The notes beneath the pieces were generated by a model. The model saw only the letters and a list, made by a program, of their open reading frames with translations, ran no database searches and was not told the origin of the DNA. Positions 20,258-39,471 of a stretch of DNA of 64,000 nt are shown here, piece after piece. Location: assembly GCA_965248355.1 (NCBI GenBank), contig OZ252098.1, positions 2,912,001 through 2,976,000 on the forward strand, read 5' to 3'. This stretch comes from Candidatus Latescibacterota bacterium (GTDB taxonomy: Bacteria > Latescibacterota > UBA2968 > UBA8231). How positions within the stretch are numbered: the stretch's first letter is position 1; the number at the start of each line of letters is the position of its first letter. The position numbers and the translations under genes were made by a program.

Positions 20258-20495
20258 AACCGCTTCGAGCCCCTGCACCTGGAGCCCGACCCGGCCGAGC
20301 CCGGCGAGGAGGGCTTTGAGGAGCGGGTCCCCACCAGCTACCTGATCGACGCCGGACGTCGGCTTCCGCTTCAGCCTCAACCCCTACCGCGGCTGCGAGC
20401 ACGGCTGCGTCTACTGCTACGCCCGGCCCGGCCACGAGTACCTCGGGTTCTCGGCGGGGCTCGACTTCGAGACCAGGATCCTGGTCAAGGAGCAG
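20258..20495 (+). pseudogene. Truncated duplicate of the PA0069 radical SAM 5' region
   Basis: Near-identical to ~15030-15299 with a 32-nt deletion between cgcc microhomologies; no start, 3' end missing. Confidence 0.9.
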
Positions 20496-20613
20496 CCGCG
20501 TCTCCCTGGCACACACCGATGTTTCCCGGAGGACCCACCCGACTCCGCGGCGGAGGTCGGGCGGATTCCTGCAAGTCCTTGGCCTCCAGGCCCGTGGAAG
20601 GCACGGGTGGAGC

Positions 20614-20629
20614 TGGCACGGTCTTTGTA
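20614..20629 (+). promoter_or_regulatory. Putative sigma54 (-24/-12) promoter
   Basis: TGGCACG-GTCT-TTGTA versus consensus TGGCACG-N4-TTGCW; ~50 nt upstream of the GT4 start; near-identical copy at 23834. Confidence 0.55.
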
Positions 20630-20676
20630 TCGGGCCTGTGTGCAACGTGGCATCCCTCCAACCCCGTCGATGGGAT

Positions 20677-21912
20677 ATGTCGCAGCCAGGCGTCACCCGC
20701 CCTGTGCCATCCGCGCGTCCTCAGCCGCGCCGGCCGGGTCCCGGTCCCGCAACCGGCCGTGGCCCGGGCCGGGGCATCATCGTGCTCAACGGCAACTTCG
20801 CGCCGGCGTCGGCGGCGGGACCTTTCAAGTACGGAGCCGTGGCCTATGCCCTGAAGGCGGCGGAGGCCCTCGACCGCCAGGGGCTGTTGGCCGGATTCCT
20901 TCTCTACCGGCGCGACGAGCGGTTGCACCGGCCGCGTCTGGAGCCGGTGTCGTTGCTCGGGTATCCCGCCCTCGAGCTCGGCTTTCACTTCGACATGGAT
21001 CGCGAGGTGTTGGCCGCGGCCCTGGAGGACGCCCGCGCGCGCCTGAACCGCGGGTGCCTCTACTACCAGACCAACGTGCTGCTGCCCTTTCACCCGCCGG
21101 GGCGGCCCCTCGTCGTCACCCATCACGCGCCCTTCGTCGACCACGTGGTCGAGGTCATGGGGGACCGCCTGGCCGCGGAGGCCTTCGGGGCCGGGCGCGC
21201 CAAGCTGGAGCACCTGCGGCACAGCCAGCGCATCGGACTGGACTGCCTGGTCCGCAGCCGCGGTTCCGCCGTGGAGATCTCGTCGATCCAGGCCGACTAC
21301 CTGCGGATGCACGGTGTGGAGCCTCGGTTCATCCACAGGATCTACCCACCCCTGGAGTGGCCCGACGGGGTGAACGGCCTCTCGCGGGAGGGTGCGCGTC
21401 TGCGGCGCTTCATCGCCGAGGCCGGCCCCCGGTTGGTCCTGTGCACGGCCTGCTCGCGGCTGGACGCCTTCAAGAACGTCGAACTCCTCGTGCAGGCCGC
21501 GTTGCGGCTGGTGAGGTCGGGTCTCGACCTGCGCGTGCTGATCATCGGGGGCCCCCCTCGGGATGGGGAGCGGCGGCGCCTGGAGAGACTGGTGGACGAG
21601 GGCCTGGCTCACCGTTTCCGCTTTGCCCCCAGGGTCCCGCGCGAAGACCTGGCCCGGGTGCTCGATGACCTGGCCGGCCGCGGCCTCTTCGTCTGTCCTT
21701 CCCGCTACGAGACTTGTGGTCTGACCCCCCTGGAGGCGGCGGCGCGGGGGGTGTGCACGTTGGTGGCGGACACGCCCGACAGGGTCGAGGCCGCGATCGC
21801 TGGTTCCGCCCCGGCACCGGTTCTCGCCCACGGTGGAGGGCCTTGGAGCCGCCGTGCGCCGAGTCGCCGAGCGACGGTCGGACCCTTGTTCGACGATCGG
21901 AGTCCTCGATGA
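20677..21912 (+). CDS. Family 4 glycosyltransferase (probable frameshift near 21794)
   Basis: [25 protein letters not shown] (E-x7-E); more natural-looking C-terminus continues in the 21833 frame. Confidence 0.8.
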
Positions 21913-22069
21913 GAACGCACAGGCCGGCAGCCGCGCCTTCGACGAGCTTGTTCATCGCGGCGTGGCTCCGGATCACGGCACCGGAGGTTCGCGGCAGACG
22001 CCTGCCGCGCCGGCAGCGACCGGCCAGAGCTCTCTCCGGAGCCGTCCCATCCCGCCTGAGAAGTCCACC

Positions 22070-22705
22070 ATGCCCGGGGGCCGTTCCGCCCGCCTGGATC
22101 TGTCCACCCACTTCAACAACGCCGGCATCACCCCGGACGGGCGGCCGGGGGCCGGGGGCCTCGACGGGATGGGCACGGCCTTCCGCGCCGAGTGCCTCCC
22201 GGCCCCGGGGGGGACCATCGTCAGCGAGGAGACGCCCTTCCTCTTTCCGGGCCGGGACCGCGAGTCGAAGGACAACATCGCCTGCGAGGCCCAGGAGATC
22301 CCGTTGCCGCCGGGCGCCTGGGACGCCCTCCACGTGCTGGGCATGTGCGACTGGCGGGCCTTCGAGGAGCCCCTCCGGTTGAAGGCCCCCGACGGCACCT
22401 GCTTGGAGACGCGCCTGGGACTCAGCGACGCCCCGCGTTACCAGGGGCTTCAGTACGGAGAGAGCGTGGCTCTCTCGTGTCCACTGACGGCCCCCGATAC
22501 CTCGATTCCCCTTTCCTCCCTCATCGGGACCTCCCCGCCGGGAGCGGGTTACGAGATGAAGGAGACCCGCATCGAGGCGGGGATCTGGCACCAGGTGATC
22601 CACTTCCATGGGCCCCGGCCGCTATCGGGACTGGTGCTGCCGGACAACCCGTCCATGCACCTCTTCGCCTTGACCTTGGTCGCGGCGGACGAGGTCTCCC
22701 CATGA
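22070..22705 (+). CDS. Hypothetical beta-sandwich (carbohydrate-binding-like) protein; possibly the C-terminal domain of the upstream GT4
   Basis: LDLSTHFNNAGIT...DNIACEAQEIPLP...LHVLG...LPDNPSMHLFALTL; stop overlaps next start. Confidence 0.6.
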   Translation: MPGGRSARLDLSTHFNNAGITPDGRPGAGGLDGMGTAFRAECLPAPGGTIVSEETPFLFPGRDRESKDNIACEAQEIPLPPGAWDALHVLGMCDWRAFEEPLRLKAPDGTCLETRLGLSDAPRYQGLQYGESVALSCPLTAPDTSIPLSSLIGTSPPGAGYEMKETRIEAGIWHQVIHFHGPRPLSGLVLPDNPSMHLFALTLVAADEVSP

Positions 22706-23712
22706 AGAAGCGCATCGACGGTATTCCCTTCTGCACCAACCGGCACTACAACTGTGTCTACGTGGTGCTCGACAGCCTGCTGCGCTTCCACGGCCACGAG
22801 CCCACCGTGCCCTGCTTTTCCAATTGGGACTTCGTCTACTCCCGGGATGGCGGGCCGTTCGCCATCCACGGCCGCGCCATCCCCCTTCCCAGGATGCTCA
22901 ACGCCTTCGGGATCGGACTGCTCAACCGCGGCGCGGCGGACGGGGAAGCCGCGTGGAAGGCCGTGAGAACGCTGATAGACGCGGATACCCCGGTGGCCGT
23001 CGGCGTCGACGTCTTCGCCCTCGCCCGGGCCGGCCTCTACCCCCGCCTGCGCCATGCCGACCACCAGTACATCGCCGCCGGGTACGACGACGAGGCGGGT
23101 ACCGTCCACCTGATCGATCCCTCCCCCTGGCAGCCTTGTGCACGGGACCTCCCCCTCGGCCTGTTCCTCGCCAGTTGGGACATGAGCGAGTTCTCCGGGG
23201 TACGGGACCGGTACAACTGGACCTGGCTGGAGGCGCCGGCGCCACGTCCCACCTTGCGCCGCGGCCCCATGCAGGCCCTCCTGCGGCGCAACCTCCGGAG
23301 CATGTCGGCCTCCAGCGGCCAGGGCGGTCTCGTCCTGGGCCTGGAGGGTATCGGACAGCTCGCCGAGGATGCCGGGGCCTGGGCGGCATACGAGGAGCCC
23401 TTCCTCAAAAAGCACTTGCGGCGGTGCGCCGAGCTCCTGCTGGAGATCGCCGTGCTCCGGGAGGGGCACGGCCACTTCCTGCGCCACCTGGGCCAGCTCT
23501 TCGACCGTCCCGCGCTGGCCGGCCTCGGCGGGGAACTCGAGGCGATCTCGCAGGGCTGGTTCGTCGTGAAGAACCTGTGCCTCAAGGGCGCCCTCAAGGA
23601 GCCGGCGAGCCTCCTGCCCCGCATTCAGTCCCGGCTCCACGACATCGAGGCCCGCGAACGGAAAGCCCTGGCGGGGCTGGCAGCGGCGGTGGAAGCGCCG
23701 GCCCGGCTTTGA
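22702..23712 (+). CDS. BtrH N-terminal-like papain-fold protein (acyltransferase/peptidase)
   Basis: YNC (Cys), HQYIAAGYD (His), LIDP (Asp); helical C-terminal domain. Confidence 0.75.
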   Translation: MKKRIDGIPFCTNRHYNCVYVVLDSLLRFHGHEPTVPCFSNWDFVYSRDGGPFAIHGRAIPLPRMLNAFGIGLLNRGAADGEAAWKAVRTLIDADTPVAVGVDVFALARAGLYPRLRHADHQYIAAGYDDEAGTVHLIDPSPWQPCARDLPLGLFLASWDMSEFSGVRDRYNWTWLEAPAPRPTLRRGPMQALLRRNLRSMSASSGQGGLVLGLEGIGQLAEDAGAWAAYEEPFLKKHLRRCAELLLEIAVLREGHGHFLRHLGQLFDRPALAGLGGELEAISQGWFVVKNLCLKGALKEPASLLPRIQSRLHDIEARERKALAGLAAAVEAPARL

Positions 23713-23833
23713 AGTGTCACCTCCACGACGCATGGCTGACGCCGGACACACACAACTCGCCCGAGCCTCGACCGGGCCGCGCGGAGGCCGCAAGTCGTTG
23801 CCGTCCAGAACGCGCCGACCGCGCCGCCGGCCC

Positions 23834-23849
23834 TGGCACGGCCTTTGTA
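23834..23849 (+). promoter_or_regulatory. Putative sigma54 (-24/-12) promoter
   Basis: TGGCACG-GCCT-TTGTA, ~57 nt upstream of the second GT4. Confidence 0.55.
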
Positions 23850-23905
23850 TCGGACATGGGCGCCAGAGCATCCGCCCACCCACTCTCGCCGCGGAGACGC
23901 GCTGA

Positions 23906-25111
23906 ATGAACATCGGCCTGATCGGTCACGGCTTCCGGCCCATCGCCGGGGGCCTGGAGCGCCCGCTTCGGGACTGCGCCGCCGGCCTCGCCCGGCGCGG
24001 CTGCCGGGTCCGCGTGCTGTCCATCGTCGGAGAGGGGTGCCGGCTGCCGCGCGACGAGGTCCTGCACCCGCCCGGCGGCTCCCCCGTCCAGGTGCACCGG
24101 GCCGCGGTGCCGCGCCCGGCCGCCAACGGCGATCCTCTTGCCGAGCCGGAGATCCCGGCCAGCGCCTGCCGGGGGCTCGCCCCGCACTGGTGCTCGCTGC
24201 TGGCCGACGCCGACGTGGTCTGCACCTTCGGCGCTTCACCGGCCCTGGCCGGCGCCGAGGTCCGCGCGCGGCTCGGACTCCCCTTCATCGCCGTTCTCCC
24301 CGGTCTGCCCAGCCAGGCCGACGCCCGCTTCCAGGAGGTCCTGCGCTGCGGCGCCGATCTGTTCGTCGGCGTCTCCCGCTCCATGTGCCGGCGCGCCGAG
24401 GAGCGCTTCGGCCTGCGCATGATCCCGGTCTGCAACGGCGTCGATACCGGGTTCTTCCAGCCCGTAGCGGCCCCGGCCGCCGAGTCGGCCCTCGGCCGCT
24501 ACGAGGTGCTGCGCGGCCTCCCGGGCCCGCTGATCACCAGCCCCGCGCGGCTCGATCCGGGTAATGGGCTCGAGCTGCTGATCGAGGCCTTCGAGCTGGT
24601 CGTCTCCCTGCGCCCCGACACCAGTCTGCTGATCACGGGCCTCGGCAGCCTCCGCCATCACCCCCTGGGGAACTCCTACGCCGATTACCTGGCCGGCCTG
24701 GTGGAACTGAAGGAGCTGGGCGCCAAGGTGCGCTTCGGCCGCGGCGTGTTCGAGGCCCGGCACATGCCCGCTCTCTACTCGCGCTCCCACCTGTGCGTCC
24801 TGACCGGCGCCGGCGAGGGCTTCGGCCTCGAATGGGCCGAGTCGCTGGCCTGCGAGACACCGGTGGTGGCCACCCGCACCGAAGGCATGGCCGAACTCTT
24901 CGGCCACGGCACCGGAGGCCTCTTGGTCGACGGCCGCGATCCGGTGAAGGTGGCCCAGGGCATCCTCCCCCTGCTCGACGACGACGGCCTGCGGCGCCGC
25001 CTCGGCCGCAGCGGCCGCGAGCACGTCCGCCGCGCCTTCCCGCTGCAGGCGCAGGCCGACCGCTACCTCGAGCTGTTCACGTCCATCCGGGCCGCCCGCG
25101 CCGCCGCCTGA
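23906..25111 (+). CDS. Family 4 glycosyltransferase
   Basis: FRPIAGGLE, NGVDTGFF, ARLDPGNG, EGFGLEWAE (E-x7-E), TPVVAT. Confidence 0.88.
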   Translation: MNIGLIGHGFRPIAGGLERPLRDCAAGLARRGCRVRVLSIVGEGCRLPRDEVLHPPGGSPVQVHRAAVPRPAANGDPLAEPEIPASACRGLAPHWCSLLADADVVCTFGASPALAGAEVRARLGLPFIAVLPGLPSQADARFQEVLRCGADLFVGVSRSMCRRAEERFGLRMIPVCNGVDTGFFQPVAAPAAESALGRYEVLRGLPGPLITSPARLDPGNGLELLIEAFELVVSLRPDTSLLITGLGSLRHHPLGNSYADYLAGLVELKELGAKVRFGRGVFEARHMPALYSRSHLCVLTGAGEGFGLEWAESLACETPVVATRTEGMAELFGHGTGGLLVDGRDPVKVAQGILPLLDDDGLRRRLGRSGREHVRRAFPLQAQADRYLELFTSIRAARAAA

Positions 25112-25125
25112 GGAGACCGGAAAGG

Positions 25126-26559
25126 ATGCCTCAAATGCAGCCGGAGTTTCTCGAGTATCTCCATCTTCCCGACGACGGCACGGCCCTGCTGAAGCCCACC
25201 CTCGAGAGTCTGCTCGAGTTGGCCAGAGAAGAGGCCGGGGACGAGTTCCCGTCGATCCGGCAACGACTCGAGGACGCCCACGCCGCGCTCGGCGGCGATG
25301 CCCGGGCCGCCGCGAGTTCCTTCCAGGGGGTCCAGGCGGCATGGCCGAATCCCGCCGCTTCCATGGCGGCCGGCGTCGCCCTCGCCCTGGCGTCGGATTG
25401 GCGCGGCGCCCTGGAGGTCTTCTCCGCGAACGCCGACCTGCTCGAGGCGAGGGGCCTTCCCGAGGCGGCTCTGGGCTGCCGGCTGAACCAGGCCTACATG
25501 CACTCCGTTCTGGGCGACTCGTCCAGCGCCGAGTCGACCCTCGATCAAGTCGTGGGGGCCTCGAGGCTCGCCGGGAAGACCCGGCTGCTGGCAACCGGAC
25601 TCCACGCCAAGGCGGTCCTCCGGTTGCGTCACGGCCGTTTCCCGGAGGCCCGGCAGGAGTGTGAGAGGGCGATGGCGGAATGCCCCGGGGAGCCCGAGCT
25701 GGCCCAGGTCATGGGTACGCAGGGCGTTGCCTCCCAGGCCCTCGGAGAGCTCCCGCGGGCGGAGAAGGAGTTCAGGGCCTCCCTGTCGCTGGCCTCGGGG
25801 GCTTCGCCCTTAGCGGAGTTGCGGGCCTCGGTCAACCTGGCCGTGCTCTGCCAGCTCACGGCGCGCGGCACCGAGGCCCTGGACCTGCTCGCCGGGGCCA
25901 CGGCCATCGCCGAGCGGCAGGGGGACGTGCGGTTCCTCGCCAAGGTTCGGTTCCTGCGGGCCCTGCTGGCCTTCGCGGAGACCGGGGAGGAGGCCATCCC
26001 GGCCGCCCTCGACGGCGTCGAGCAGATGCGCATCCATGGCTACCGCAAGGGAGAGCTGGACTCCATTGCCATGGTGGTCCCGTGCCTCCTCGAGTGCGGC
26101 AAGGCCCTGGAAGCGGAGACCCTGGCCGCGTCGGCGGTGAGCACGGCGGAAGAAACCGGATACCTGGCCGGGCTCCTCGAAGCGATGTCCAGCGCCGCCC
26201 TGGTCCATCTCGCCGGCGCCGACCTCGAGCGCGCGAGGGAGATGGCTTGCCGCCTCCTTGAGAAGAGCGCCGCGGCGGAGCTGCCCATGATCGCCGTCAA
26301 GGCCCACCGGGTCCTGTCGGACGTGTCGCTGCAGGAGGGAGAGCCGGAAAGAGCCCTGGAGCACCTTCGACGGGCGGAGGGAGCGGCCGCGGAGATGGGG
26401 GCCCAGGTGCTGCAGTGCCACCTCATGGAGGGAGTGGCCGGCCTCCTCGAGATCTGCGGAAGAATCGACGAGGCCGAGGCGGAGAGAGCGGCCGCCCAGG
26501 CGCGGGCGCTCTCCATCGGAGTGGGGAGGACTACCGGAGTCGGGAACAACATCGAATGA
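25126..26559 (+). CDS. TPR-repeat (MalT-TPR-like) protein with no recognisable output domain
   Basis: Repeated Ala/Leu-rich helical TPR-like units (e.g. NLAVLCQLTARGTEALDLL). Confidence 0.7.
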   Translation: MPQMQPEFLEYLHLPDDGTALLKPTLESLLELAREEAGDEFPSIRQRLEDAHAALGGDARAAASSFQGVQAAWPNPAASMAAGVALALASDWRGALEVFSANADLLEARGLPEAALGCRLNQAYMHSVLGDSSSAESTLDQVVGASRLAGKTRLLATGLHAKAVLRLRHGRFPEARQECERAMAECPGEPELAQVMGTQGVASQALGELPRAEKEFRASLSLASGASPLAELRASVNLAVLCQLTARGTEALDLLAGATAIAERQGDVRFLAKVRFLRALLAFAETGEEAIPAALDGVEQMRIHGYRKGELDSIAMVVPCLLECGKALEAETLAASAVSTAEETGYLAGLLEAMSSAALVHLAGADLERAREMACRLLEKSAAAELPMIAVKAHRVLSDVSLQEGEPERALEHLRRAEGAAAEMGAQVLQCHLMEGVAGLLEICGRIDEAEAERAAAQARALSIGVGRTTGVGNNIE

Positions 26560-26608
26560 ACACGGGGGCATCTACGAGGGCGCTACATTCACCGGAAGGA
26601 GATCCATC

Positions 26609-26836
26609 ATGAACAGACTCATCAAGCCCCAGAAGCAGTCTTACACCGGCGAGGACGCCCAGGTCCTTGCTTATTCCGATGCCTGCGAGATAGCATGGCT
26701 CATGAACCTCTGCTCTGGCGGCATAGGCGCCGCAGTCTTGTTGGGCCTCGCCGTGCCGCCGGCCCTGGTCGCGTTCGGCGTGTCGTGCTTCATCATGTAC
26801 GTCATCACCTCGGCGGCGTGCAAGGGCTACATCTGA
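26609..26836 (+). CDS. RiPP/bacteriocin-like precursor peptide 1 (75 aa)
   Basis: GAAGGAG RBS; leader MNRLIKPQKQSYTGEDAQVLAY, 4-Cys hydrophobic core ending KGYI. Confidence 0.88.
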   Translation: MNRLIKPQKQSYTGEDAQVLAYSDACEIAWLMNLCSGGIGAAVLLGLAVPPALVAFGVSCFIMYVITSAACKGYI

Positions 26837-26950
26837 TCCATTCCTCCCCGGCCCTTCTTTCAGTCGTGGACCGTCCTGATGAGCGGGACGAACAACGAAT
26901 GAACAGGGGGCATCTACGTGGGCGCTACATTCACCGGAAGGAGATCCATC

Positions 26951-27166
26951 ATGAACAGACTCAACAAGCCCCGAAAGCAGTCCTACACGGGCGATGACAC
27001 TCAGGTCGTTGCCTACTCCCGTCTCTGCGAGATGACGTGGACGACCGCCTTCTGCACAAGCTCCCTGCCCTTCCTCGGCGGCGTGCATCCCTTCCTGGTC
27101 GCGGTGGGAGTGAGCTGCTCCATCTTCTCCATGGTCTGTTCGGCGGTGAGCAACGGTTACATCTGA
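26951..27166 (+). CDS. RiPP/bacteriocin-like precursor peptide 2 (71 aa)
   Basis: Same RBS/5' block; leader MNRLNKPRKQSYTGDDTQVVAY, core ending NGYI. Confidence 0.88.
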   Translation: MNRLNKPRKQSYTGDDTQVVAYSRLCEMTWTTAFCTSSLPFLGGVHPFLVAVGVSCSIFSMVCSAVSNGYI

Positions 27167-27387
27167 TCCCGTCACGCCGAGACTTGCGGCATAGACGCGA
27201 ACGTCGATAAGACAAACCCCTTAGCGCCCCGTAGATGCCCCCATGATCGAATCGTCTCGTCCCTGCCATGATCCCCATCCATGCCACCGGTTCTTTTGGA
27301 GTCGGGGCCCGTGACGGGGGGACGAACAACGAATTGAACAGGGGGCATCTACGTGGGCGCTACATTCACATCGGAAGGAGATCCATC

Positions 27388-27609
27388 ATGAGCAAACTCA
27401 TCAAGCCGCAGAAGCAGTCCTACACCGGCGAGGACTCCCAGGTCCTTGCCTACTCCCTTGCCTGCGAGATTGCGTGGGCCACCCAGTACTGCGTGGCCTT
27501 GGTAGCGGTTGCTCTCATTTTTGGCGGGCCGGCTGGGGTGGCCGGGGTTGGCATCCTGTGTGTCGTCATCTACGTCGTCTCCACGTCGGCGTGCCACGGT
27601 TACATCTGA
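27388..27609 (+). CDS. RiPP/bacteriocin-like precursor peptide 3 (73 aa)
   Basis: Same RBS/5' block; leader MSKLIKPQKQSYTGEDSQVLAY, core ending HGYI. Confidence 0.88.
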   Translation: MSKLIKPQKQSYTGEDSQVLAYSLACEIAWATQYCVALVAVALIFGGPAGVAGVGILCVVIYVVSTSACHGYI

Positions 27610-27683
27610 CCTTCTCCCGAGAATTGCACCGTGCCTAGTACTCACTGACCAACCAAACCCCTTAGCGCCCCGTAGATGCCCCC

Positions 27684-29348: not shown

Positions 29349-29366
29349 CAGGAGGCTGAGACCGAC

Positions 29367-31885: not shown

Positions 31886-32325
31886 GGATTCCCTCCCGCA
31901 TCGAGTGGACCGGGGCAGCGGTCCTGATCTGCGCGGCCGCCTGCTCCCTGCTCCTGCTGATGGGGCTGGTCCTCATCGACGTGGAGCGGGGGGTCCGGGT
32001 CTCGGGGACGGTGACGGGAGGGGATGGTACCTGGCGGCTCGAGGGCCCCGTGTCGAGCCGGAGTCTCGGGCTCCTGGGCGACGCCCGGTACGTCCTCGCC
32101 GCGAGGGGGAACCGCCGGATCCTGTTGGGAGAAGTGCGGGCGGTCGACGCGCGGTTCCGCCCAGGCGCGGGGGAAGTCCTCGCCGCCGTGGAGTTCGAGT
32201 CCACGGCCAACGGCGACGGCCGGTCCCATCCCGTGGAAGAGGGCCCCGCGAGCCTTTTCCTGGCCACACGGCCTTCGGGGCCCTTGCTGCTCGCCCTCCT
32301 CGAAAAGGTGAGCCCCGCGAGGTAA
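31882..32325 (+). CDS. Small membrane-anchored protein (truncated HlyD/adaptor-like)
   Basis: N-terminal TM then 'DVERGVRVSGTV'; ATGA overlap with exporter. Confidence 0.5.
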   Translation: MRIPSRIEWTGAAVLICAAACSLLLLMGLVLIDVERGVRVSGTVTGGDGTWRLEGPVSSRSLGLLGDARYVLAARGNRRILLGEVRAVDARFRPGAGEVLAAVEFESTANGDGRSHPVEEGPASLFLATRPSGPLLLALLEKVSPAR

Positions 32326-32415
32326 AGCGCGAGGGGCGCCTGGGGAGACGCCCGTGCGATCGTTCCCGGAGAGTCCGGGAATGCCCGCCTGAGCCAAACC
32401 AGAAAAGGTCATGTC

Positions 32416-33189
32416 ATGAAGAGATGGGCAGAGAGAGGCACGAAGGAGGAGGAGAGGGCGCACCTGGTGGACCGCGTGCGCCTCGTGGTGGCGTCGCCGC
32501 GGCAGGCTCTCGGCGCCATCCTCGAGAGCCGCCCCTGGGTGGACGTATTCGTGGTGCTGAGCCTGGGGAGCGCGCTGTTCTCGTGCCTCTCCCTGCACCT
32601 GGCGGGGGACCAACTGGAGCTCGTGCCGGCCGGACTGCTCACCGAGTCCCAGCAGGATGTCGTCGCCGTCCTGAGGTTCGCGGCGATCGTCCTGCTTGCG
32701 TTCCCGGTCACCCTCGTCAGCCTCCTGGCGCCCGCGTTCTTCCTGTGGCTGCTGGTGCAGATGTTCGAGGAATGGAGCGACTTCCGGTCGATCCTGGCCG
32801 TCGTCGCCCACGCGAGTCTGGTGTTGCTGTTCTCCCAGGCGGCGGACACCATCCTGCTCGCCCTGAGATTGCAGGGGCAAGAGGCCGTGGGCCTCTCGGA
32901 GATGGGAGCCCAGGCCGATCTGGGCCTGCTCTTCGACCTCGGCGGGGCCCCCCTTCTCGCGGTCCTCCTGTCGTACACCAGCCCTTTCAAGATCTGGTTC
33001 TATGGACTCCTCGTCCTCGGCATCGGCCGGGCCTGCCGGCTGACCTGGCCGCGCAGCGCCGGCGTCGTGGCGCTCCTCCTCGTCGCCAGCCTCGCGCTGA
33101 GAGTGAGCCTCACCTTCCTGACGGATTCGGCCTCCGAGTCCCTCACCGCCGACTCCGACTGCCCCGCCTGCGAGCTGCTGCCACACTGA
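32416..33189 (+). CDS. Yip1-domain membrane protein with C-terminal CxxC
   Basis: VVASPRQAL...FRSILAVVAHA...SPFKIWFYGLLVLGI; ends DSDCPACELLPH. Confidence 0.8.
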   Translation: MKRWAERGTKEEERAHLVDRVRLVVASPRQALGAILESRPWVDVFVVLSLGSALFSCLSLHLAGDQLELVPAGLLTESQQDVVAVLRFAAIVLLAFPVTLVSLLAPAFFLWLLVQMFEEWSDFRSILAVVAHASLVLLFSQAADTILLALRLQGQEAVGLSEMGAQADLGLLFDLGGAPLLAVLLSYTSPFKIWFYGLLVLGIGRACRLTWPRSAGVVALLLVASLALRVSLTFLTDSASESLTADSDCPACELLPH

Positions 33190-35114
33190 TGGCCAATCTC
33201 TCCTTTGCGGACCTGACGGGACGTGGGGTGCGCGTCGCCATCATCGACAGCGGCCTCGACACCTCCCGCCCCGACCTCGCGAGGAACGTCGTCGGAGGCG
33301 TCTCGATCCAAGTCGGGGACGACGGGACCATTCGGCGGAGCGAGGACTACGCCGACGAGGCGGGACACGGCACCGCCTGCGCCGGGATCCTCCGCGGCCT
33401 GGCTCCCGAGGTGGAGCTGTCGATCATCCGGATCTTCGACGCCCTCCTCTCCGCCCGGGCCTCGGTCCTGGAGGCCGCCCTCGAGCACGCCGGCGAGGAG
33501 GGCGCTCACGTCATCAACGCGAGCCTCGGAGTCACCGACACCGCGGTCGCCGGCCGTCTCCGGGATGTCTGCCGCAGCCTTCAGCGCGCCGGCATCTGCA
33601 TCGTCTCCGCTCAACCCCGCGGCGGCGAGCGCAGCTTTCCCGCGGAGTTCGAGGAGGTGATCGGCGTCGAGGACGGGGACGTCCGCGGCAAGTACGGGTA
33701 CCACTACCGCGCCGGCCGGCCCATCGAATGCGTCGCCAAGGGAGGCCCCCGCCGGGTCGTCTGGCTGAACGGGGAAGAGGCGCTGAAGAGCGGCGCGAGC
33801 TACGCCGCACCCCATATCAGCGGCATCGTGGCGCTCCTGAAGGAACGGTACCCAACGGCCGGCCTCGAGGAGATGCGGAGGCTGCTCGAGAGCAACGCCA
33901 CCAGCCCCCCGAGCGCGAGTCCCCGGGGACGGGGGAAGAAAGCCCGGAGCCCCGGGGGAAAGGGGCGCCCCGGCCGGGTGGATCGGCGGCCCTCCTCGCC
34001 GTGGATGCGCCGCGTCGTCCTGTACCCCTACAGCAAGGAGCTCCACGGCCTCGTCCGCTTTCGGGATCTCACGGGCCTGGAGGTGGTGGGCGTGGCCGAT
34101 CCGGCGGGCCGGCGCCTGGTGGGCAAGGACGCGGGAGAAGCGATCGGCGCGGAACCCGCGGGTGTCATGATCGGGCCTGCCCTCGCCGGCGAGCTGGGCG
34201 CCGGTGACACGGTGATCCTGGGCTATCTCGACGAGCTCGGACGGATCGCGAAACGCGACCTGCTGAGGGATGCCATCGAAGCCGCCCTCGCCGGCAACCG
34301 CAACGTCTACAGCCTGAATGCGGTGCCCGAGTTGAGGTATGGAGACTTGTACGCCGAGAGCCGCCGCAGGGGGCTCCGGTTGGCCTATCCCTCGGTCTCC
34401 ATCGCCGAGGTGGAGAGGACGATCCGGGAGAAGTCGACCCTGGGCAAGATCGCCGTGCCCGTCATCGGCTTCTTCGGGACGAGCTCCCAGCAGGGAAAGT
34501 TCACCGCCCAGCTGGCCTTGCGCCGCCATCTGCTGAAGCAGGGCTACCGGGTCGGCCAGCTCGGCACGGAGCACCAGTCCGGGCTCTTCGGTTTCGACTA
34601 CACCTTCCCCATGGGGTACGCCTCGCCCCTCGAACTGCCCCTTCAGCGCTTCGAGCCCTTCCTGGACGCCAAGCTCAGGGAGATCCATCACGACAAGAAG
34701 CCCGATGTGCTCATCGTCGGGTCCCAGTCGGGCACCATCCCCTTCGCCATCGACGAGCCCCGGAGCCATCACTTCGGGAGTCTCGCCTTCCTGTTGGGCG
34801 CCAAACCCGATGTCTGCGTGCTGGCGGTCAACTGCATGGACCCGGAGGAGTACGTGAGGCACACCATCGACGCCATCCGGATCGTCGGGAAGGCCCGGAC
34901 GATCTGTCTCCTGCTCAGCGACAAGCAGAGGCGCGTGGAGTCGGCCCATGGCCACACCTGGATGAGTTCCAGGGTCCTGAAGGGCGCGGCGCTGCAGGAG
35001 GCGCTGAAGGACCTGGAGGACCGGTTCGGCCTTCCCGCGGTATGCCCCGCCGACCCCGGCGGTCAACGCCGCCTCGCAGAGACCGTGGAGACGGCGCTCT
35101 CGGCGGCCGCCTGA
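33189..35114 (+). CDS. S8 peptidase fused to a DUF1611/TIGR04066-like P-loop domain (peptide maturation protein)
   Basis: IIDSG / GHGTACAG / SGASYAAPH triad; C-terminal PVIGFFGTSSQQGKFT...GYRVGQLGTE...VGSQSG. Confidence 0.8.
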   Translation: MANLSFADLTGRGVRVAIIDSGLDTSRPDLARNVVGGVSIQVGDDGTIRRSEDYADEAGHGTACAGILRGLAPEVELSIIRIFDALLSARASVLEAALEHAGEEGAHVINASLGVTDTAVAGRLRDVCRSLQRAGICIVSAQPRGGERSFPAEFEEVIGVEDGDVRGKYGYHYRAGRPIECVAKGGPRRVVWLNGEEALKSGASYAAPHISGIVALLKERYPTAGLEEMRRLLESNATSPPSASPRGRGKKARSPGGKGRPGRVDRRPSSPWMRRVVLYPYSKELHGLVRFRDLTGLEVVGVADPAGRRLVGKDAGEAIGAEPAGVMIGPALAGELGAGDTVILGYLDELGRIAKRDLLRDAIEAALAGNRNVYSLNAVPELRYGDLYAESRRRGLRLAYPSVSIAEVERTIREKSTLGKIAVPVIGFFGTSSQQGKFTAQLALRRHLLKQGYRVGQLGTEHQSGLFGFDYTFPMGYASPLELPLQRFEPFLDAKLREIHHDKKPDVLIVGSQSGTIPFAIDEPRSHHFGSLAFLLGAKPDVCVLAVNCMDPEEYVRHTIDAIRIVGKARTICLLLSDKQRRVESAHGHTWMSSRVLKGAALQEALKDLEDRFGLPAVCPADPGGQRRLAETVETALSAAA

Positions 35115-35116
35115 AG

Positions 35117-36061
35117 ATGACCGGACCCATGGGAGCGATGAGGAAGGCGATGCTCGCCGCGCTCGCGGCGGGCCTGTTCGTGCCGGGATGCCGGGGCGGC
35201 CAGGAAAGCTCCACGGTGCCGGGGCACCCGGTCGTCCGGGCCGTCCGTGGAGAGCTGACCGACAGGCTCTCGGCCGATGGCCGTCTCGAGTTCGCCGAGA
35301 TCGTGGACGTCAGCTCCACTCTCTCGGGCACCGTGACCTGGATCGCCGGGGAGGGTGGGATCGTGAAGGAGGGTGACCGGGTCGCCACCGTGCGGGGGCG
35401 GCAGGGACGGACCGCCAACGTCCCGGCGACCCGGGGAGGCACCGTGGTGAAGCGGCACGTGGACGCGGGAGAGAGCGTCCTCTCCGGTTTCGAGGGCGGG
35501 ACCGCGCTGGTATCCATCGCCTCCACGGAGAGCTTCATCGCCCGCTGCGACGTGGCCGAAGTGGACGTCGAGTCCTGGAGCCGGGACGGGCCGGCGGAAA
35601 TCACCGTGCAGGCCTTCCCCGAAGACCGCCTCGAGGGACGGGTGAAGCGGATTTCGAAGATGGGCCGCAGGAGCCCGGGCAGCCACATGATCACCTTTGA
35701 AGCGGTGATCGGCCTGCAAGAGACCACCGACCGGCTGCGCCACAACATGTCCTGTGTCGTGGAGGTTCCGACGTACGTGCAGAGGGACGTGATCTCCCTG
35801 CCGTTGCAGGCCGTCGTGCTCGAGGGCTTCGAAGCCGCCGCCTGGAGAGCCCGCGGTCCGGTGGGAGCCCGCGCCTGGTTGTGCTCGGCGGAGGACCCCG
35901 GCGGCGGAGGCGCGGCGCCGGCTTGCCCCCGGGACCACTTCAGGCAAGTGGGGCTGAGGATCTCGCGAGGCACGGAGAGCCGCGTCGTGGTCCTGTCCGG
36001 GCTCCGGGCCGGGGATCTCGTCGCCGCCGATGCAGCCGCCCTCGAGGAGGAGGCGGAGTGA
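35117..36061 (+). CDS. Efflux periplasmic adaptor (MacA-like), putative lipoprotein
   Basis: Lipobox-like VPGC, lipoyl-type repeats, LSGLRAGDLV terminus. Confidence 0.8.
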   Translation: MTGPMGAMRKAMLAALAAGLFVPGCRGGQESSTVPGHPVVRAVRGELTDRLSADGRLEFAEIVDVSSTLSGTVTWIAGEGGIVKEGDRVATVRGRQGRTANVPATRGGTVVKRHVDAGESVLSGFEGGTALVSIASTESFIARCDVAEVDVESWSRDGPAEITVQAFPEDRLEGRVKRISKMGRRSPGSHMITFEAVIGLQETTDRLRHNMSCVVEVPTYVQRDVISLPLQAVVLEGFEAAAWRARGPVGARAWLCSAEDPGGGGAAPACPRDHFRQVGLRISRGTESRVVVLSGLRAGDLVAADAAALEEEAE

Positions 36062-37281
36062 GTCCGCGTCTCAGGCGCCGTTGCCGAGTTGCCAGGGCCG
36101 CCGTGGTGCAGGGCCTCCGGTATCAGCTCCGCGGCAACCTGCCGCGCACCGCCCTCGCCTGTTTCGGGATCACCGTGGGCGCGGCGGGGCTTGTTGCGGT
36201 GCTGTCCGTGGGCGGCGGGCTCAGACGCCTGCTGATCTCGGACGCCCGGCAGGCGGGGGGCCATCTGAGCGTGATCATCGCGCCGCCGCCGGGCCCGGAG
36301 AGACGCGCCCCCCTGACTCTGGCGGATATCGATCGCATCGGACGGATTCCCGGCGTGGAAGCCGTGGTCCCCGAGACCAGCGCCCCGGGGCGGATAGGGG
36401 CCGGAGGGCGGCAGGTTCCGGCGCAGGTGCGGGGGGTCACACCGGAGTTCCTGTCCCGCCGCGACTGGGGGCTGGACAGGGGCCGGGGGATCGTCACCGA
36501 GGATGTGTACTCGTCGCGGCGAGTCTGCGTCCTCGGCCACTCCGTCGCCTCCCGGCTGTTCCCCGACGCGCAGAGGACGGACGGCGCCGTATCCATCGAT
36601 GGCCTGCGGTTCTCCGTGGCCGGGGTGCTGGAGCCACGCTCCCCTCGGGATCCGGGCGGCAACGACGTGGTGCTCGTCCCCATCACGACCTCCCTCGAGG
36701 CGCTCCGGATCCGGGAAGTCGGCAGGGCGACCGTTCAGGCCGCCCACGTGGAGGAGGTCCCCGCCATCGTCGAACGAATCAAGACGTGGCTGGCGCGGGA
36801 GCACCGATACGGCGAGGACTTCCGGGTCCGTTCGGCCGTCGCCGACGCCCAGGGCGCCGTCCGGGCCCTCCGGGGGATCGAGGTGTCGCTGGGGGCGTTG
36901 GCGGCGATCTGCCTCGGCCTCGGGGGCCTGGGCATCCTGAACGTCATGCTGGCCTCTCTCGATGAGCGCGTCTACGAGATGGGTCTGCGCTCGGCCATCG
37001 GGGCTCCCGGCCACGCCCTCCTGCTGCAGCTCCTGGCCGAGTCACTCGCCATGAACCTGGCGGGCTTCCTCCCGGGGATCGCCCTGGGCGCCGGGGTCTC
37101 GTCCTGCGTGGAGTGGTCCGTCTCCCTCTTCCTGCCCGGGGCTGACTTCCGCGCAGCCGTAACGGGCGAGGCCTTGCTGGCGGCCGGGCTGGCCTCGGGC
37201 GGGGTCGGCCTGCTGTCGGGGGTCTTCCCGGCTCTGCGCGCGGCGCGCATGAGCCCGGTGCAGGCCCTGAAGGAGACCTGA
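36058..37281 (+). CDS. MacB/FtsX-family ABC permease
   Basis: GGLGILNVMLASLDERVYEMGLRSAIGA; PALRAARMSPVQALK. Confidence 0.88.
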   Translation: MSPRLRRRCRVARAAVVQGLRYQLRGNLPRTALACFGITVGAAGLVAVLSVGGGLRRLLISDARQAGGHLSVIIAPPPGPERRAPLTLADIDRIGRIPGVEAVVPETSAPGRIGAGGRQVPAQVRGVTPEFLSRRDWGLDRGRGIVTEDVYSSRRVCVLGHSVASRLFPDAQRTDGAVSIDGLRFSVAGVLEPRSPRDPGGNDVVLVPITTSLEALRIREVGRATVQAAHVEEVPAIVERIKTWLAREHRYGEDFRVRSAVADAQGAVRALRGIEVSLGALAAICLGLGGLGILNVMLASLDERVYEMGLRSAIGAPGHALLLQLLAESLAMNLAGFLPGIALGAGVSSCVEWSVSLFLPGADFRAAVTGEALLAAGLASGGVGLLSGVFPALRAARMSPVQALKET

Positions 37282-37287
37282 GAGGGA

Positions 37288-38511
37288 ATGCGGAGTCTGC
37301 ACGCGGCGCCCATGGCCCTGGCGGCGATACGGCGGTTCCGCCTGAGGGCCGTCGTCGCGGTCGTCTCGGTGGCCATCGGAGTCGCAGCCATGGTGGCGAT
37401 CCAATCCTTCGGCGCCGCCATCCAGCGGCTGGTGATGGGCGAGCTCGGCAGGCTCGGGCTCGAAGGGCTGGTCCTGGTGCACCCCCGTCCGGCGCTGGCC
37501 CTGCAGGGGCCGGGGCCGATGCTGACCCTGCAGCAGGTGCGGGAGCTCGAACGCGGCGTGCCCGATCTCGACTACGTCGTGCCCATCTTGCATTTGGATC
37601 TCGAGATCCGGTCCGGAGGCCGCGGGACGTATGCCCGGGCCACGGGCACGGCACCCGACTACCGCCGGCTTCTCGGAGACAAGATGGCGGCGGGCCGGTT
37701 TCTCGACGAGACCGACGATCTGACTCGCCGCAGGGTCTGTGTCCTCGGCGCCGACCTGGCCAAGCGACTCCTGCGAGGCGGCCATCCCGTTGGACGGAAG
37801 GTCCTCCTGGCCGGCACCACCTACACGGTCGTGGGAGTGCTCGAGGGAAGGCGGTTGATGGATTCCGCCTGGGGCGACGAGCGGCTCATCATCCCCATCC
37901 GCACGCTGCAGAGCTTTCACGGGGGGCCGCCCGGGATCCACGCCATCCACGCATCCCTGGCGGCCGGTGCCGACGCTTCGAGAGCTCTGGCCGCGGTTCG
38001 TCGAGGGCTGGCCCGCGGCGGCGGCGGCCAGGACCTCGATCATTACGAGGTCATGAGCGGCCGGGAGGTGCTTCAGGACATCAACCAGGCCCTGATCGTG
38101 GCGCGCCTCGTGACGACGGCCATCGCCGGGATGGCCCTGCTCGTCGGGGCCGTGGGCGTCCTCAATACCATGCTCATCTCGGTGGAGCAGCGTGTCTGCG
38201 AGATCGGCCTTCGCAAGGCCCTTGGCGCCCGGCCGATGGCCCTCGTGAGCCAGTTTCTCACCGAGGCCGTGGTCCTGAGCTGCTGCGGGGGAGTACTGGG
38301 CCTGGCGCTGGGATGGGGGCTCGCCAGGGGCGGGGAGGCGGTGCTCTCCGGATGGCTCGGAACCTCCATGGCAGGGTCCACCGACTGGGGGACCGCGGGG
38401 CTCGCCCTCGCCGTCTCCCTGACCGTGGGCATCTGCTCCGGCGTCGTCCCCGCGGTTCAGGCCGCGGAACTCCCTCCCGCGGAGGCCATGAGGAATGCTG
38501 GTCGAGCTTGA
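37288..38511 (+). CDS. MacB/FtsX-family ABC permease
   Basis: GVLNTMLISVEQRVCEIGLRKALGA. Confidence 0.88.
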   Translation: MRSLHAAPMALAAIRRFRLRAVVAVVSVAIGVAAMVAIQSFGAAIQRLVMGELGRLGLEGLVLVHPRPALALQGPGPMLTLQQVRELERGVPDLDYVVPILHLDLEIRSGGRGTYARATGTAPDYRRLLGDKMAAGRFLDETDDLTRRRVCVLGADLAKRLLRGGHPVGRKVLLAGTTYTVVGVLEGRRLMDSAWGDERLIIPIRTLQSFHGGPPGIHAIHASLAAGADASRALAAVRRGLARGGGGQDLDHYEVMSGREVLQDINQALIVARLVTTAIAGMALLVGAVGVLNTMLISVEQRVCEIGLRKALGARPMALVSQFLTEAVVLSCCGGVLGLALGWGLARGGEAVLSGWLGTSMAGSTDWGTAGLALAVSLTVGICSGVVPAVQAAELPPAEAMRNAGRA

Positions 38512-39208
38512 ATCCGCCTGCAAGGTCTACCGGAAGGGGCCGGAGCGGGTGCGCGCCCTGTGGGATGTCGACGCCGCCTTCGGCCCCGGAGAGTTCGTGG
38601 CCCTCATGGGTCCCTCCGGCTCCGGGAAGACGACGATGCTCAACATCATCGGCTGTCTCGACTACCTGACGGCGGGGAGGTATCTGCTGCAGGGAGAGGA
38701 TGTAACCGGCTTGAATCCCATCCGCCTCGCCGAGGTCCGAAGCCGGAAGATCGGGTTCGTCTTCCAGAGCTTTCACCTGCTGCCGAGGGCGACGGCCGCG
38801 GAGAACGTCGAGCTCCCCCGGATCTACGCGGGATCAAGCCGGCGCCAGCGCAGAGAGTGCGCCCACGCGGCCCTCGAACGAGTCGGACTGGCGGATCGCC
38901 GCGACTTCCGGCCGGAAGAGCTGTCCGGGGGCCAGCGGCAGCGAGTGGCCATCGCCAGGGCCCTGGTGAATGAACCCTCTCTCATTCTGGCCGATGAGCC
39001 GACCGGCAGCCTGGACCCCCAGGCCGCCGGAGGGGTCATGGACCTCTTCACGAGACTGAACGACGAAGGCATCGCCATCGTCCTGGTCACCCACCAGGAA
39101 GACGTGGCACGGCACGCCAGGCGGAAGATCCGCCTGGCCGATGGGCGGGTGATCCCCGCACCCGACGGACCGGCGTGTCCCGCGCAAACACGAGAGACCC
39201 ACAGATGA
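38495..39208 (+). CDS. MacB/LolD-type ABC ATP-binding protein
   Basis: GPSGSGKTT, LSGGQRQR, ADEPTG, VTH. Confidence 0.92.
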   Translation: MLVELESACKVYRKGPERVRALWDVDAAFGPGEFVALMGPSGSGKTTMLNIIGCLDYLTAGRYLLQGEDVTGLNPIRLAEVRSRKIGFVFQSFHLLPRATAAENVELPRIYAGSSRRQRRECAHAALERVGLADRRDFRPEELSGGQRQRVAIARALVNEPSLILADEPTGSLDPQAAGGVMDLFTRLNDEGIAIVLVTHQEDVARHARRKIRLADGRVIPAPDGPACPAQTRETHR

Positions 39209-39471
39209 CGAAAGCGGAGATCACCGGCAGGGTCCGGGAGGCCGTGGTGAAGGCCCTTGAGCTGCCCATCGGGCCCGAGGAACTCCCCGAGAGCGAGCCC
39301 CTCTTCGGCGCCGACGGCGAAGTCGATTCGATCCTGTCGATCAAGCTGGTCGTCGAGCTGGAGGAAGCCTTCGGAATCGACGTCGACGATGACGATCTGA
39401 CGGAGGAACTCTTCGGGACGGTCGCGGCCCTGGCGGCGTACGTGGAAACCAAACTGGCTGGCCGGGGGTGA
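39205..39471 (+). CDS. Acyl carrier protein
   Basis: Acidic 88 aa; VDSILSIKLVVELEEAFGIDV with the phosphopantetheine Ser. Confidence 0.88.
   Translation: MTKAEITGRVREAVVKALELPIGPEELPESEPLFGADGEVDSILSIKLVVELEEAFGIDVDDDDLTEELFGTVAALAAYVETKLAGRG

Follow-up and report, generated by a model that had tools for sequence, protein, structure and literature searches.

A locus in a Candidatus Latescibacterota contig encodes candidate leader-bearing hairpin peptides beside two family-4 glycosyltransferases and a BtrH-like protein

What is produced by the 19 co-oriented genes that lie in the middle of a 64-kb stretch of a Candidatus Latescibacterota contig (OZ252098.1, positions 2,912,001 to 2,976,000), and how is the product matured? 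An earlier reading of this stretch from its letters alone (the sequence-only reading) had proposed that the genes specify a new class of peptides that are synthesized ribosomally and modified post-translationally (RiPPs), namely glycosylated or acylated Cys-hairpin peptides that are matured without a radical S-adenosylmethionine (SAM) enzyme. We mapped the genes of the whole stretch, which we refer to as the window (about 70% G+C), by a third-position GC frame plot and start-codon context, and we assigned the cluster proteins to families with Pfam and NCBIfam scans. All 19 genes are located on the + strand between positions 20677 and 39471. They are arranged in the order GT4a (a family-4 glycosyltransferase), g2, g3, GT4b, a tetratricopeptide repeat (TPR) protein, the precursors pA, pB and pC, g6, g7, g8 and g9, followed by Yip1, g11 (S8 plus DUF1611), HlyD, two MacB-type permeases, an ATPase and the carrier protein g16. 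The family scans returned the same gene set as the sequence-only reading, and the cluster coordinates given there are right because the similarity to relatives breaks at the ends of the block: it ends at the stop codon of g16, and in one relative (L004) the DNA similarity picks up again about 100 nt upstream of GT4a. The genes are indeed co-oriented, but their description as mostly overlapping was somewhat overstated, since only 7 of the 18 junctions overlap (11 of the 18 measure at most 18 nt). Judged from its sequence, the cluster is a real and coherent RiPP-like bacteriocin locus with a leader/core layout of its precursors, and it appears to be undescribed, as the sequence-only reading had supposed, for no paper on it was found in our literature searches. 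It is very probable that the locus makes and exports peptides, and these are most likely membrane-active bacteriocins of a Gram-negative, Gemmatimonadaceae-like lineage.

A genome scan with the membrane domain of g8 yielded 477 pattern matches, four of which were confirmed as related loci (L001 to L004) and compared with the cluster by tblastn. L003 and L004 have the full gene order from GT4a to the pumps and four precursor genes each, one of the L003 copies being frameshifted; the cassette upstream of the precursors is thus present in both of the related loci in which that DNA is visible. In L004 the second MacB gene is split by an IS1595-type transposase, and neither the ATPase gene nor the carrier gene was seen in the remaining 2.9 kb, while the L002 contig ends inside g6. 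The four related records are divided in their labels, with two assigned to Gemmatimonadaceae and two to Candidatus Latescibacterota; with protein identities of 73-94% despite these mixed phylum labels, either one label is wrong or the locus has moved between lineages, probably. The cluster belongs to a narrow group of Gemmatimonadaceae-like bacteria.

The three precursor genes proposed by the sequence-only reading are real. pA (26609..26836, 75 aa), pB (26951..27166, 71 aa, 55% identity with pA) and pC (27388..27609, 73 aa, 53% identity with pA) were recognized from their translations; the 15-nt ribosome-binding stretch before the ATG is identical in all three, and 26 columns of their alignment are invariant. 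pA consists of a polar leader of 22 aa and a hydrophobic core of 53 aa with four Cys residues (grand average of hydropathy, GRAVY, of the core 1.41). A profile search of 5.8 billion proteins gave 46 family members among 179 candidates, and the two members that bear names are both called 'hypothetical protein [Gemmatimonadaceae bacterium]'; in a full HMMER pass over 1.84 billion representatives, the family comprised 9 proteins at E ≤ 0.001. The leader (residues 1-22) is polar and conserved (mean top-residue frequency 0.84), has the invariant residues M1, L4, K6, P7, Y12, G14, A21 and Y22, and ends in Ala-Tyr. The core of about 50 residues is variable (0.54) and hydrophobic (GRAVY 1.0-1.6 across the family), the exceptions to this variability being E27, C35 and C60. 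Between loci the precursors diverge faster than the neighbouring genes (48-71% versus 73-94% identity).

The Cys hairpin of the sequence-only reading was supported by two kinds of evidence, a structure prediction and the paired gain and loss of Cys residues. AlphaFold, supplied with the family alignment, predicted a helix (15-44), a loop and a second helix (51-72) with a predicted local distance difference test score (pLDDT) of 81.8. The Cys residues were compared in 51 distinct sequences, from which the truncated P0072 and P0074 and the apparently frameshifted P0070 and P0071 had been left out. Of these sequences, 39 have both C26 and a Cys in the C-terminal helix, 11 have neither, and 1 has only one of the two (Fisher p = 2.5e-10, uncorrected for relatedness), and about two independent paired losses were counted. 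C35 and C60 each occur in 49 of the 51 sequences; P0069 is devoid of both and retains the outer pair, and in the pB type the outer C-terminal Cys is displaced by one helical turn. This paired gain and loss fits two nested disulfides, C26-C71 and C35-C60, which we regard as likely.

Processing of the precursors is expected to depend on g11 (33189..35114, 641 aa), which matches both Peptidase_S8 (83.1 bits) and DUF1611 (48.7 bits). Residues 1-250 form an S8 domain for which QhpE is the top model (125 bits, cut-off 165), and residues 275-641 match TIGR04066 with 110-112 bits (cut-off 200) over profile positions 2-335 of 361, so that this half is homologous to TIGR04066, divergent and fused to the S8 domain. 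D20, H60 and S204 lie within subtilase motifs and G430, S432 and K437 are invariant, this conservation extending across 8 aligned proteins; neither a signal peptide nor a membrane segment was found at the N-terminus. The fusion is far more widespread than the precursor family, because, of 8000 candidates scored in a search with the TIGR04066-like domain, 413 proteins matched at E ≤ 0.001. Among 120 matches listed, all with at least 50% identity, 113 contain both S8 and DUF1611, and the names of such matches include 'S8 family serine peptidase' from Spirochaetales and Latescibacterota. Comparison of the TIGR04066-like domain with PDB sequences gave nothing significant, the DUF1611 structure 2g0t appearing only at E 0.2. 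A link of DUF1611 (DgcN) to an N-acetyltransferase is a possible lead, which a literature search did not confirm. The likely partner of g11 is the carrier protein g16 (39205..39471, 88 aa; PP-binding 41.7 bits), which keeps the Asp-Ser phosphopantetheine site (S42), matches generic acyl carrier protein (ACP) models in addition to PP-binding, and is 86-92% identical in L001-L003; it gave no TIGR04069 match even at E 10.

Where else do these parts occur together? A tblastn search with g11 against plasmids returned 54 records, 6 of which cover at least 80% of g11, and two contexts were read. The first is a cluster on a Bacillus cereus-group megaplasmid (Bacillus albus NZ_CP040345, L005; five further records are similar) that is built around a multinuclear non-haem iron-dependent oxidative enzyme (MNIO). 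Besides the S8-TIGR04066 fusion it encodes an ABC exporter, a PP-binding protein of 79 aa and two peptides of 44 aa; also present are an enzyme of the MbnB/TglH type (274.5 bits), a partner with weak likeness to ApyI and a protein of 326 aa. It has in common with our locus the fusion itself (29% identity over 89% of the length), a PP-binding protein whose DS motif aligns with that of g16, the exporter and the tandem short precursors, but differs in having the MNIO, the ApyI-like partner and 44-aa peptides, and in being without GT4, TPR and g2. This cluster, on which no paper was found in the literature, shows that the module works without a radical SAM enzyme. The second context, on Clostridium pasteurianum pCLOPA01 (L006), contains a CLI_3235 precursor, CcpM, an unfused TIGR04066 protein, a TIGR04069-like protein (60.7 bits) and an S8 protease, and a CLI_3235 cluster of Paenibacillus polymyxa is described as having the same parts (PMC10731318). 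The link to CLI_3235 systems that the sequence-only reading had drawn was therefore upheld by the TIGR04066 match of g11 and by the corresponding parts of the Clostridium locus. An observation apart from this concerns L006 5491-6957, where a GT39 glycosyltransferase stands beside the ABC exporter of the CLI_3235/CcpM cluster, a second case of a glycosyltransferase next to the processing module.

The comparison with the CLI_3235/CcpM systems (freyrasin-type ranthipeptides of Clostridia and Paenibacillus) shows both what is shared and what is not. Common to both are a short precursor with a basic leader ending in Ala-Tyr or Leu-Tyr (judged by eye), an S8 protease, a TIGR04066-type P-loop protein, a small carrier-like protein and a peptidase-less ABC exporter. 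The clostridial-type systems, however, are defined by CcpM (TIGR04068), a TIGR04065 precursor and a TIGR04069 carrier, none of which is found in the cluster, and they have Cys-rich repeat cores instead of long hydrophobic hairpin cores; in the cluster, moreover, TIGR04066 stays below its cut-off and is fused to S8. The profiles that the sequence-only reading had named for a check gave mixed results: BtrH_N and DUF1611 were matched, TIGR04066 was matched below cut-off, and TIGR04065 and TIGR04069 were not matched. The locus is best filed within the CLI_3235-type family of peptide systems, though it is without the defining precursor model, CcpM and TIGR04069 of that family, and the conservation of the parts in these three settings indicates that the S8-TIGR04066 fusion, the carrier protein and the peptidase-less exporter form a portable module. 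In the papers searched, no description was found of what the TIGR04066 protein and the small carrier that goes with it do in CLI_3235/ranthipeptide clusters. The S8 domain and the exporter also recall the maturation of quinohemoprotein amine dehydrogenase, in which the QhpF exporter is without a peptidase domain. The QhpD/E/F system shares with the cluster a peptidase-less exporter and a QhpE-like S8 protein (PMC8172795); it differs in that the cluster contains neither dehydrogenase subunits nor QhpD, and in that the S8 domain scores below the QhpE cut-off.

The export functions are encoded by three sets of genes. g8 (30125-31885, 586 aa), which together with g9 (147 aa) spans 30125..32325, matches ABC_membrane (143.6 bits), ABC_tran (114 bits) and the peptidase-less NHLP exporter subunit (288.6 bits), and has no C39 domain. 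g9 has one N-terminal membrane segment and is conserved in all 4 loci (77-82%); the label 'adaptor' given to it earlier was not confirmed, as it showed no family match, no similarity to the HlyD adaptor and no tblastn match on plasmids. g6, a polytopic membrane protein of 554 aa with 11 hydrophobic segments, and g7, a DrrA-like ABC ATPase, together occupy 27684..30134. No hidden Markov model matched g6, so that its label 'ABC-2 permease' is likewise unconfirmed, and among the members of its nearest ESM Atlas clusters 11-32% have ABC_tran_2 or 12TM_1; 19 relatives (59-96% identity) were found among 8000 scored candidates. g7 (29367-30134) reaches 202 bits with the TIGR01188 drrA model and 150.8 bits with a lantibiotic-protection ATPase model, and the likeness of g6/g7 to lantibiotic-protection ABC systems comes through this ATPase only. 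We consider g6/g7 a putative immunity or efflux ABC system. The third set comprises a Yip1/YknW-like membrane protein (32416..33189, 257 aa; Yip1 32.9 bits, cut-off 28.6; YknW_fam 33 bits, below the cut-off of 110) and, at 35117..39208, an HlyD-type adaptor (35117-36061; HlyD_D23 35 bits), two MacB-type permeases (MacB_PCD 112 and 130 bits, FtsX 57 and 60 bits) and an ABC ATPase (ABC_tran 113.8 bits, MacB 238.6 bits, darobactin exporter DarD 209.9 bits). By their domain content these five proteins make up a YknWXYZ/MacAB-like pump, which may serve immunity or passage through the outer membrane. YknWXYZ is described as an efflux pump for the SDP peptide toxin (PMC4887032); the pumps of the YknWXYZ (Bacillus) and MacAB/DarBCD types share with this set Yip1, the membrane-fusion protein, the FtsX/MacB permease and the ATPase, whereas the cluster has two permease genes, the S8 fusion gene inside the set and a YknW score below the cut-off.

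The cassette upstream of the precursors starts with GT4a (20677..21912, 411 aa; Glycos_transf_1 54.7 bits, GT4-conflict 38.9 bits), of which the profiles match the C-terminal Rossmann half only, and it includes a second, full-length family-4 glycosyltransferase, GT4b (23906..25111, 401 aa; Glycos_transf_1 90 bits, Glyco_transf_4 39.4 bits). Both contain the E-x7-E motif that is typical of GT4 (E345-x7-E353 in GT4a and E304-x7-E312 in GT4b). GT4a is 78% identical in L003 and L004, and L004 has an intact GT4b (73% identity). An interpretation of the GT4-conflict match as phage defence is unsupported, because a PADLOC scan found no defence system among the cluster genes, the sole match being a generic subtilase. 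The cassette ends with the TPR protein (25126..26559, 477 aa; TPR_12 34.6 bits, TPR_2 33.3 bits), which is 76-78% identical in L003 and L004. A 63-aa open reading frame between g3 and GT4b (23714-23905) was rejected as a gene since it belongs to no family and its matches in L003 and L004 are short, weak and outside the syntenic position.

Between the two glycosyltransferase genes lie g2 (22070..22705, 211 aa) and g3 (22702..23712, 336 aa), which overlap by 4 nt. The start of g2 was set at 22070, and not at 21833 or 21854, by the orthologous open reading frame of L003. g2 matches nothing in Pfam, NCBIfam or PADLOC, and the earlier label 'beta-sandwich' is unconfirmed: there is no family to support it, and an AlphaFold model from 3 orthologues (pLDDT 42) was unusable. 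Relatives of g2 were nonetheless detected with tblastn on 23 plasmids (11 from Streptomyces, 11 from Bacillus and 1 from Frondihabitans), and in 5 of the 6 contexts read a gene annotated as BtrH_N (4) or DUF6005 (1) directly follows the g2-like gene, which usually overlaps it. Three of the contexts with a BtrH-like gene are LysW/non-ribosomal peptide synthetase (NRPS) clusters of Streptomyces. A Bacillus mycoides cluster with the pair contains an ACP, three KASIII-like (ketoacyl-ACP synthase III) genes, an ATP-grasp enzyme and an adenylate-forming enzyme, and in Bacillus cereus the DUF6005 neighbour is followed by a methyltransferase, two ABC transporter genes and a sugar-phosphate nucleotidyltransferase; in the sixth context the g2-like region forms the C-terminus of an SGNH/GDSL hydrolase. 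No similarity was found between g2 and the partner protein of the Bacillus MNIO cluster. From these gene neighbourhoods, g2 and g3 appear as a conserved two-gene unit across three phyla, the usual setting of which is carrier-protein chemistry.

g3 was identified as a BtrH-like papain-fold protein by BtrH_N (47.4 bits, cut-off 29.7), with DUF4872 (27.4 bits) just under its cut-off of 28. In an alignment with BtrH-like proteins, C18 of the putative triad is kept in 5 of 6 sequences and H121 and D139 in all 6. BtrH and CtaG are described as papain-fold transacylases that take the acyl group from a carrier protein, and the spacing of the g3 triad is close to that given for CtaG, C11/H128/D144 (PMC7183216). 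The cluster has in common with these transacylases the BtrH_N domain, the Cys-His-Asp triad and a carrier protein with a phosphopantetheine site; it differs from them in being without a carrier-loading enzyme, and no precedent was found for a ribosomal peptide as acceptor. A sequence search of the PDB with g3 gave nothing significant. The BtrH family is also reported to be close to C39 peptidases (PMC10318531), and the only C39-like signal in the cluster is a weak match of g3 to Peptidase_C39_2 (E 0.0026). A role as a protease is equally possible for g3 as acyl transfer. Because the carrier protein goes with the S8-TIGR04066 module also where no catalytic BtrH enzyme is evident, the 'ACP-linked transferase' of the sequence-only reading is, if BtrH-like, one option and not the default. 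An observation in its own right is that the 326-aa protein of the Bacillus MNIO cluster (L005 8105-9085) aligns over its full length with BtrH-like proteins, with the His and Asp columns kept and Phe in place of C18, and may by its sequence be a non-catalytic BtrH-like partner; compared with g3 it gave BLASTP E 8e-5 (C-terminal part) and an hhalign probability of 0.5%, and Pfam BtrH_N matched it at E 0.0038.

Taken together, these data draw the picture of a locus for the production, export and self-protection of hairpin peptides that includes at least one tailoring step by the upstream cassette, a picture for which we see the odds as even. In the cytoplasm, the QhpE-like S8 domain of g11 would cut off the leader, probably after Tyr22; that this domain is what removes the leader seems to us reasonably probable. 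The TIGR04066-like P-loop domain and the carrier protein would carry out a step that is common to all CLI_3235-type systems, and the cassette of GT4a, g2, the BtrH-like protein, GT4b and the TPR protein would take the place of the usual CcpM radical SAM enzyme or MNIO. The TPR protein might hold the precursor while the GT4s add sugar, and the g2/BtrH-like pair might move a carrier-bound group onto the peptide, for which the new N-terminal amine would be the obvious acceptor; alternatively, this pair could be a second protease. g8 (with g9) would then export the peptide to the periplasm, where the C26-C71 and C35-C60 disulfides would form, and the pump of Yip1, HlyD, two MacB proteins and the ATPase, together with g6/g7, would expel the peptide and protect the producer.

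How far does this support a new RiPP class, in the sense of doubly disulfide-stapled helical hairpins of about 50 residues, from a Gram-negative phylum, that are glycosylated by GT4s and N-acylated by the g2/BtrH-like pair from a dedicated carrier, a CLI_3235-type platform having exchanged its radical SAM enzyme or MNIO for these tailoring enzymes? As a whole we think this unlikely. GT4-dependent glycosylation of the peptide is suggested by operon adjacency and is a tentative proposal; carrier-dependent acylation, to which operon adjacency likewise points, is a doubtful one, although the idea of acyl transfer stays plausible because the g2/BtrH-like pair sits in carrier-protein pathways elsewhere. 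A considerable number of observations weigh against the proposal. The expected combination of GT4 and BtrH-like genes with such precursors was found in L003 and L004, but the syntenic loci are all close kin (73-94% protein identity) and not independent, and in L001 the half from g6 to the carrier stands without precursors or cassette within 7.5 kb. No carrier-loading enzyme (adenylating, ATP-grasp or ketosynthase) was found among the 19 genes with Pfam and NCBIfam, the sole nucleotide-binding candidate for this function being the P-loop domain of g11. The S8-TIGR04066 module has the carrier protein at its side also where no active BtrH enzyme is evident; no BtrH enzyme is annotated in the Clostridium pasteurianum locus, where the TIGR04069-like protein moreover seems to be without the Ser site, in a weak alignment of 18% identity. 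By eye, the leaders of the three systems are alike, with a basic start containing Lys-Pro or Lys-Lys, an acidic stretch and a (V/I)-x-(A/L)-Tyr end. This likeness is, however, insignificant: hhalign gave a co-linear alignment with the Bacillus peptide at E 0.031 and a probability of 1.6%, aligned no leader with the Clostridium CLI_3235 precursor, and TIGR04065 matches none of the three precursors even at E ≤ 10. As regards the hairpin, the 11 two-Cys sequences look like one clade, the Cys counts being uncorrected for phylogeny, and a Foldseek comparison of the precursor model with the PDB gave nothing below E = 1.

Further points against peptide tailoring are at the same time those that favour the strongest competing explanation. 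According to this explanation, the peptides undergo only leader removal and disulfide formation, as class II bacteriocins do, and the cassette is a neighbouring unit with another substrate, which may be an envelope glycolipid, an exopolysaccharide or a small carrier-bound metabolite, possibly with a contribution to immunity. In L003, with the rest of the locus intact, GT4b keeps residues 1-159 and 366-394 in frame and has lost residues 160-365; at least one GT4 is dispensable there because the catalytic half is missing. The top NCBIfam matches of both GT4s, all far below their cut-offs, are enzymes of polysaccharide or small-molecule synthesis (EpsE, MshA, GlgA and BshA), and the g2/BtrH-like pair is found elsewhere in small-molecule and not in peptide pathways. 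None of the Ser/Thr or Lys columns of the core is invariant; among the Ser/Thr columns, S23 (84%), S59 (73%) and S68 (71%) rank highest. Gaps of 157 and 193 nt within the cassette also leave room for separate promoters, but GT4b and the TPR gene are only 14 nt apart and the TPR gene and pA 49 nt, all on one strand. Likewise, the block from GT4a to the carrier gene acts as one unit whose ends coincide with the breaks in similarity to relatives, and neither sugar-nucleotide, lipid-carrier nor polysaccharide-export genes were found among the cluster genes with Pfam and NCBIfam. Finally, in the Bacillus and Clostridium contexts a core-modifying enzyme always stands beside the processing module. 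We hold this explanation to be possible but not probable.

The hydrophobicity of the cores could also indicate membrane-resident or signalling peptides, for example regulators or partners of transporters, that are not secreted antimicrobials. The cores do look like two transmembrane helices (GRAVY 1.0-1.6), and the top Foldseek rows are hairpins of membrane proteins, all at E > 1. Such a function is nevertheless disfavoured, and we consider it improbable, because a conserved cleavable leader with a dedicated protease and exporter, three to four fast-diverging paralogues per locus and two extra ABC systems of peptide-toxin efflux types are the usual marks of a bacteriocin locus.

The claim that the cluster is without radical SAM, LanM and YcaO enzymes held for the cluster itself, in which Pfam and NCBIfam found no member of these families and no CxxxCxxC motif was present, but it has to be qualified in view of the neighbouring DNA. 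The only radical SAM gene found in the 64-kb window, at 14841-16049 and 4.6 kb upstream of the cluster, belongs to the PA0069 family (NF033668, 480 bits, cut-off 360) and has no match to CcpM, QhpD-type or SPASM-type models. It counts against maturation without such an enzyme that this gene is a conserved neighbour: in L004 its 3' end is about 110 nt from the GT4a upstream region, because the intervening 4.5 kb (16056-20571) are absent there. In L003 a different gene is found directly upstream of the cluster, and participation of the PA0069-family enzyme in maturation is unlikely. Freyrasin-type peptides carry Cys-x3-Asp/Glu repeats. A radical SAM enzyme, be it this neighbour or one encoded elsewhere in the genome, that makes ranthipeptide-like thioethers would be in keeping with a processing module otherwise typical of CcpM systems, with the QhpE-like S8 domain and with the conserved Cys26-Glu27 pair (E27 in 51/51), but is highly improbable given the family of the neighbour, its replacement in L003, a paired gain and loss of Cys that fits Cys-Cys rather than Cys-acid links, and an alignment in which the repeats of freyrasin-type peptides, for which Cys/Asp links are described (PMC9413430), are not visible.

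SunS-type glycosyltransferases belong to the GT2 family. The glycocins with which they are associated (sublancin, glycocin F and thermoglycocin) are among the closest known counterparts of the peptides proposed here: they are described as ribosomal helical hairpins with two nested disulfides and an adjacent glycosyltransferase (PMC12457901), features of which the hairpin and disulfides are predicted in our case. They differ in their SunS-type enzymes, C39-peptidase exporter and Gly-Gly or Gly-Lys leaders, whereas the cluster has GT4s, with glycosylation being conjectural, an S8 protease, an Ala-Tyr leader end, a Gram-negative host and far more hydrophobic cores. If the GT4s and the BtrH-like enzyme act on the peptides, peptide glycosylation would extend beyond the SunS type, and the BtrH family would have a ribosomal substrate. 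Were the new class real, this would be the first ribosomal peptide substrate of a BtrH-family enzyme, the first handle on the function of TIGR04066 and its carrier in all such systems, and one of the few peptide-antibiotic systems known from Gemmatimonadota. If the tailoring is untrue, the locus would still represent a new family of hairpin bacteriocins that are stapled by disulfides and served by unusually heavy machinery for export and immunity. A module that is combined with three unrelated enzyme sets (radical SAM, MNIO and GT4/BtrH-like) points to a general leader-processing unit that is worth characterizing.

Repeated non-coding units surround the precursor genes (26541..27689, repeat families D1-D4 and inverted repeats I1-I6). 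A GC-rich arm is located upstream of the ribosome-binding site of each precursor gene, with its complement downstream of pB and of pC; the copy downstream of pC directly abuts the g6 start codon, which is itself within one copy of an exact 36-nt repeat (27213-27248 and 27654-27689). The spacer between pB and pC folds as a long hairpin (-87.5 kcal/mol, z = -5.5). L003 (5847-7530) and L004 (6219-7500) have retained the arms, and the 3' arm precedes g6 in all five loci; the spacer stem is invariant in the 3 copies compared, which show no covariation and hence carry no weight either way. An Rfam scan of the window gave no match, a sigma-70 promoter scan found no promoter, and the terminator-like sites are all inside genes, none of them cleanly following a precursor gene. 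This arrangement around the precursor genes may serve in mRNA processing, mRNA stabilization or control of g6 translation.

The DNA on either side of the cluster is also of some interest. The PA0069-family gene is followed by a redoxin-like gene (15976-16632), a gene for a Peptidase_A24-like membrane protein (16632-17675), a gene for a protein of 101 aa that has 10 cysteines and a hydrophobic N-terminus (17781-18086) and two genes for paralogous signal-peptide proteins with a common short C-terminal tail (18172-19101 and 19237-20250); the region 14841-20250 could be a second small-protein system. Directly 3' of the cluster, at 40193-42855, lie an AAA ATPase gene of low G+C content (53%) on the minus strand, with a PADLOC NsnB match of 177 bits, and a pair of IS3-type transposase genes. 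The related loci, too, are bordered or broken up by mobile or defence DNA, as seen from the IS1595 element of L004 and from an island of 58% G+C upstream of g6 in L001, which encodes Vsr, a C5 methylase, a UvrD/PD-(D/E)XK protein and an AAA_21 ATPase. Elsewhere in the window, an ABC exporter gene at 8602-9936 (region 7050-9936) matches MsbA from profile position 147 on, with upstream coding signal in other frames, and may be frameshifted or mis-assembled.

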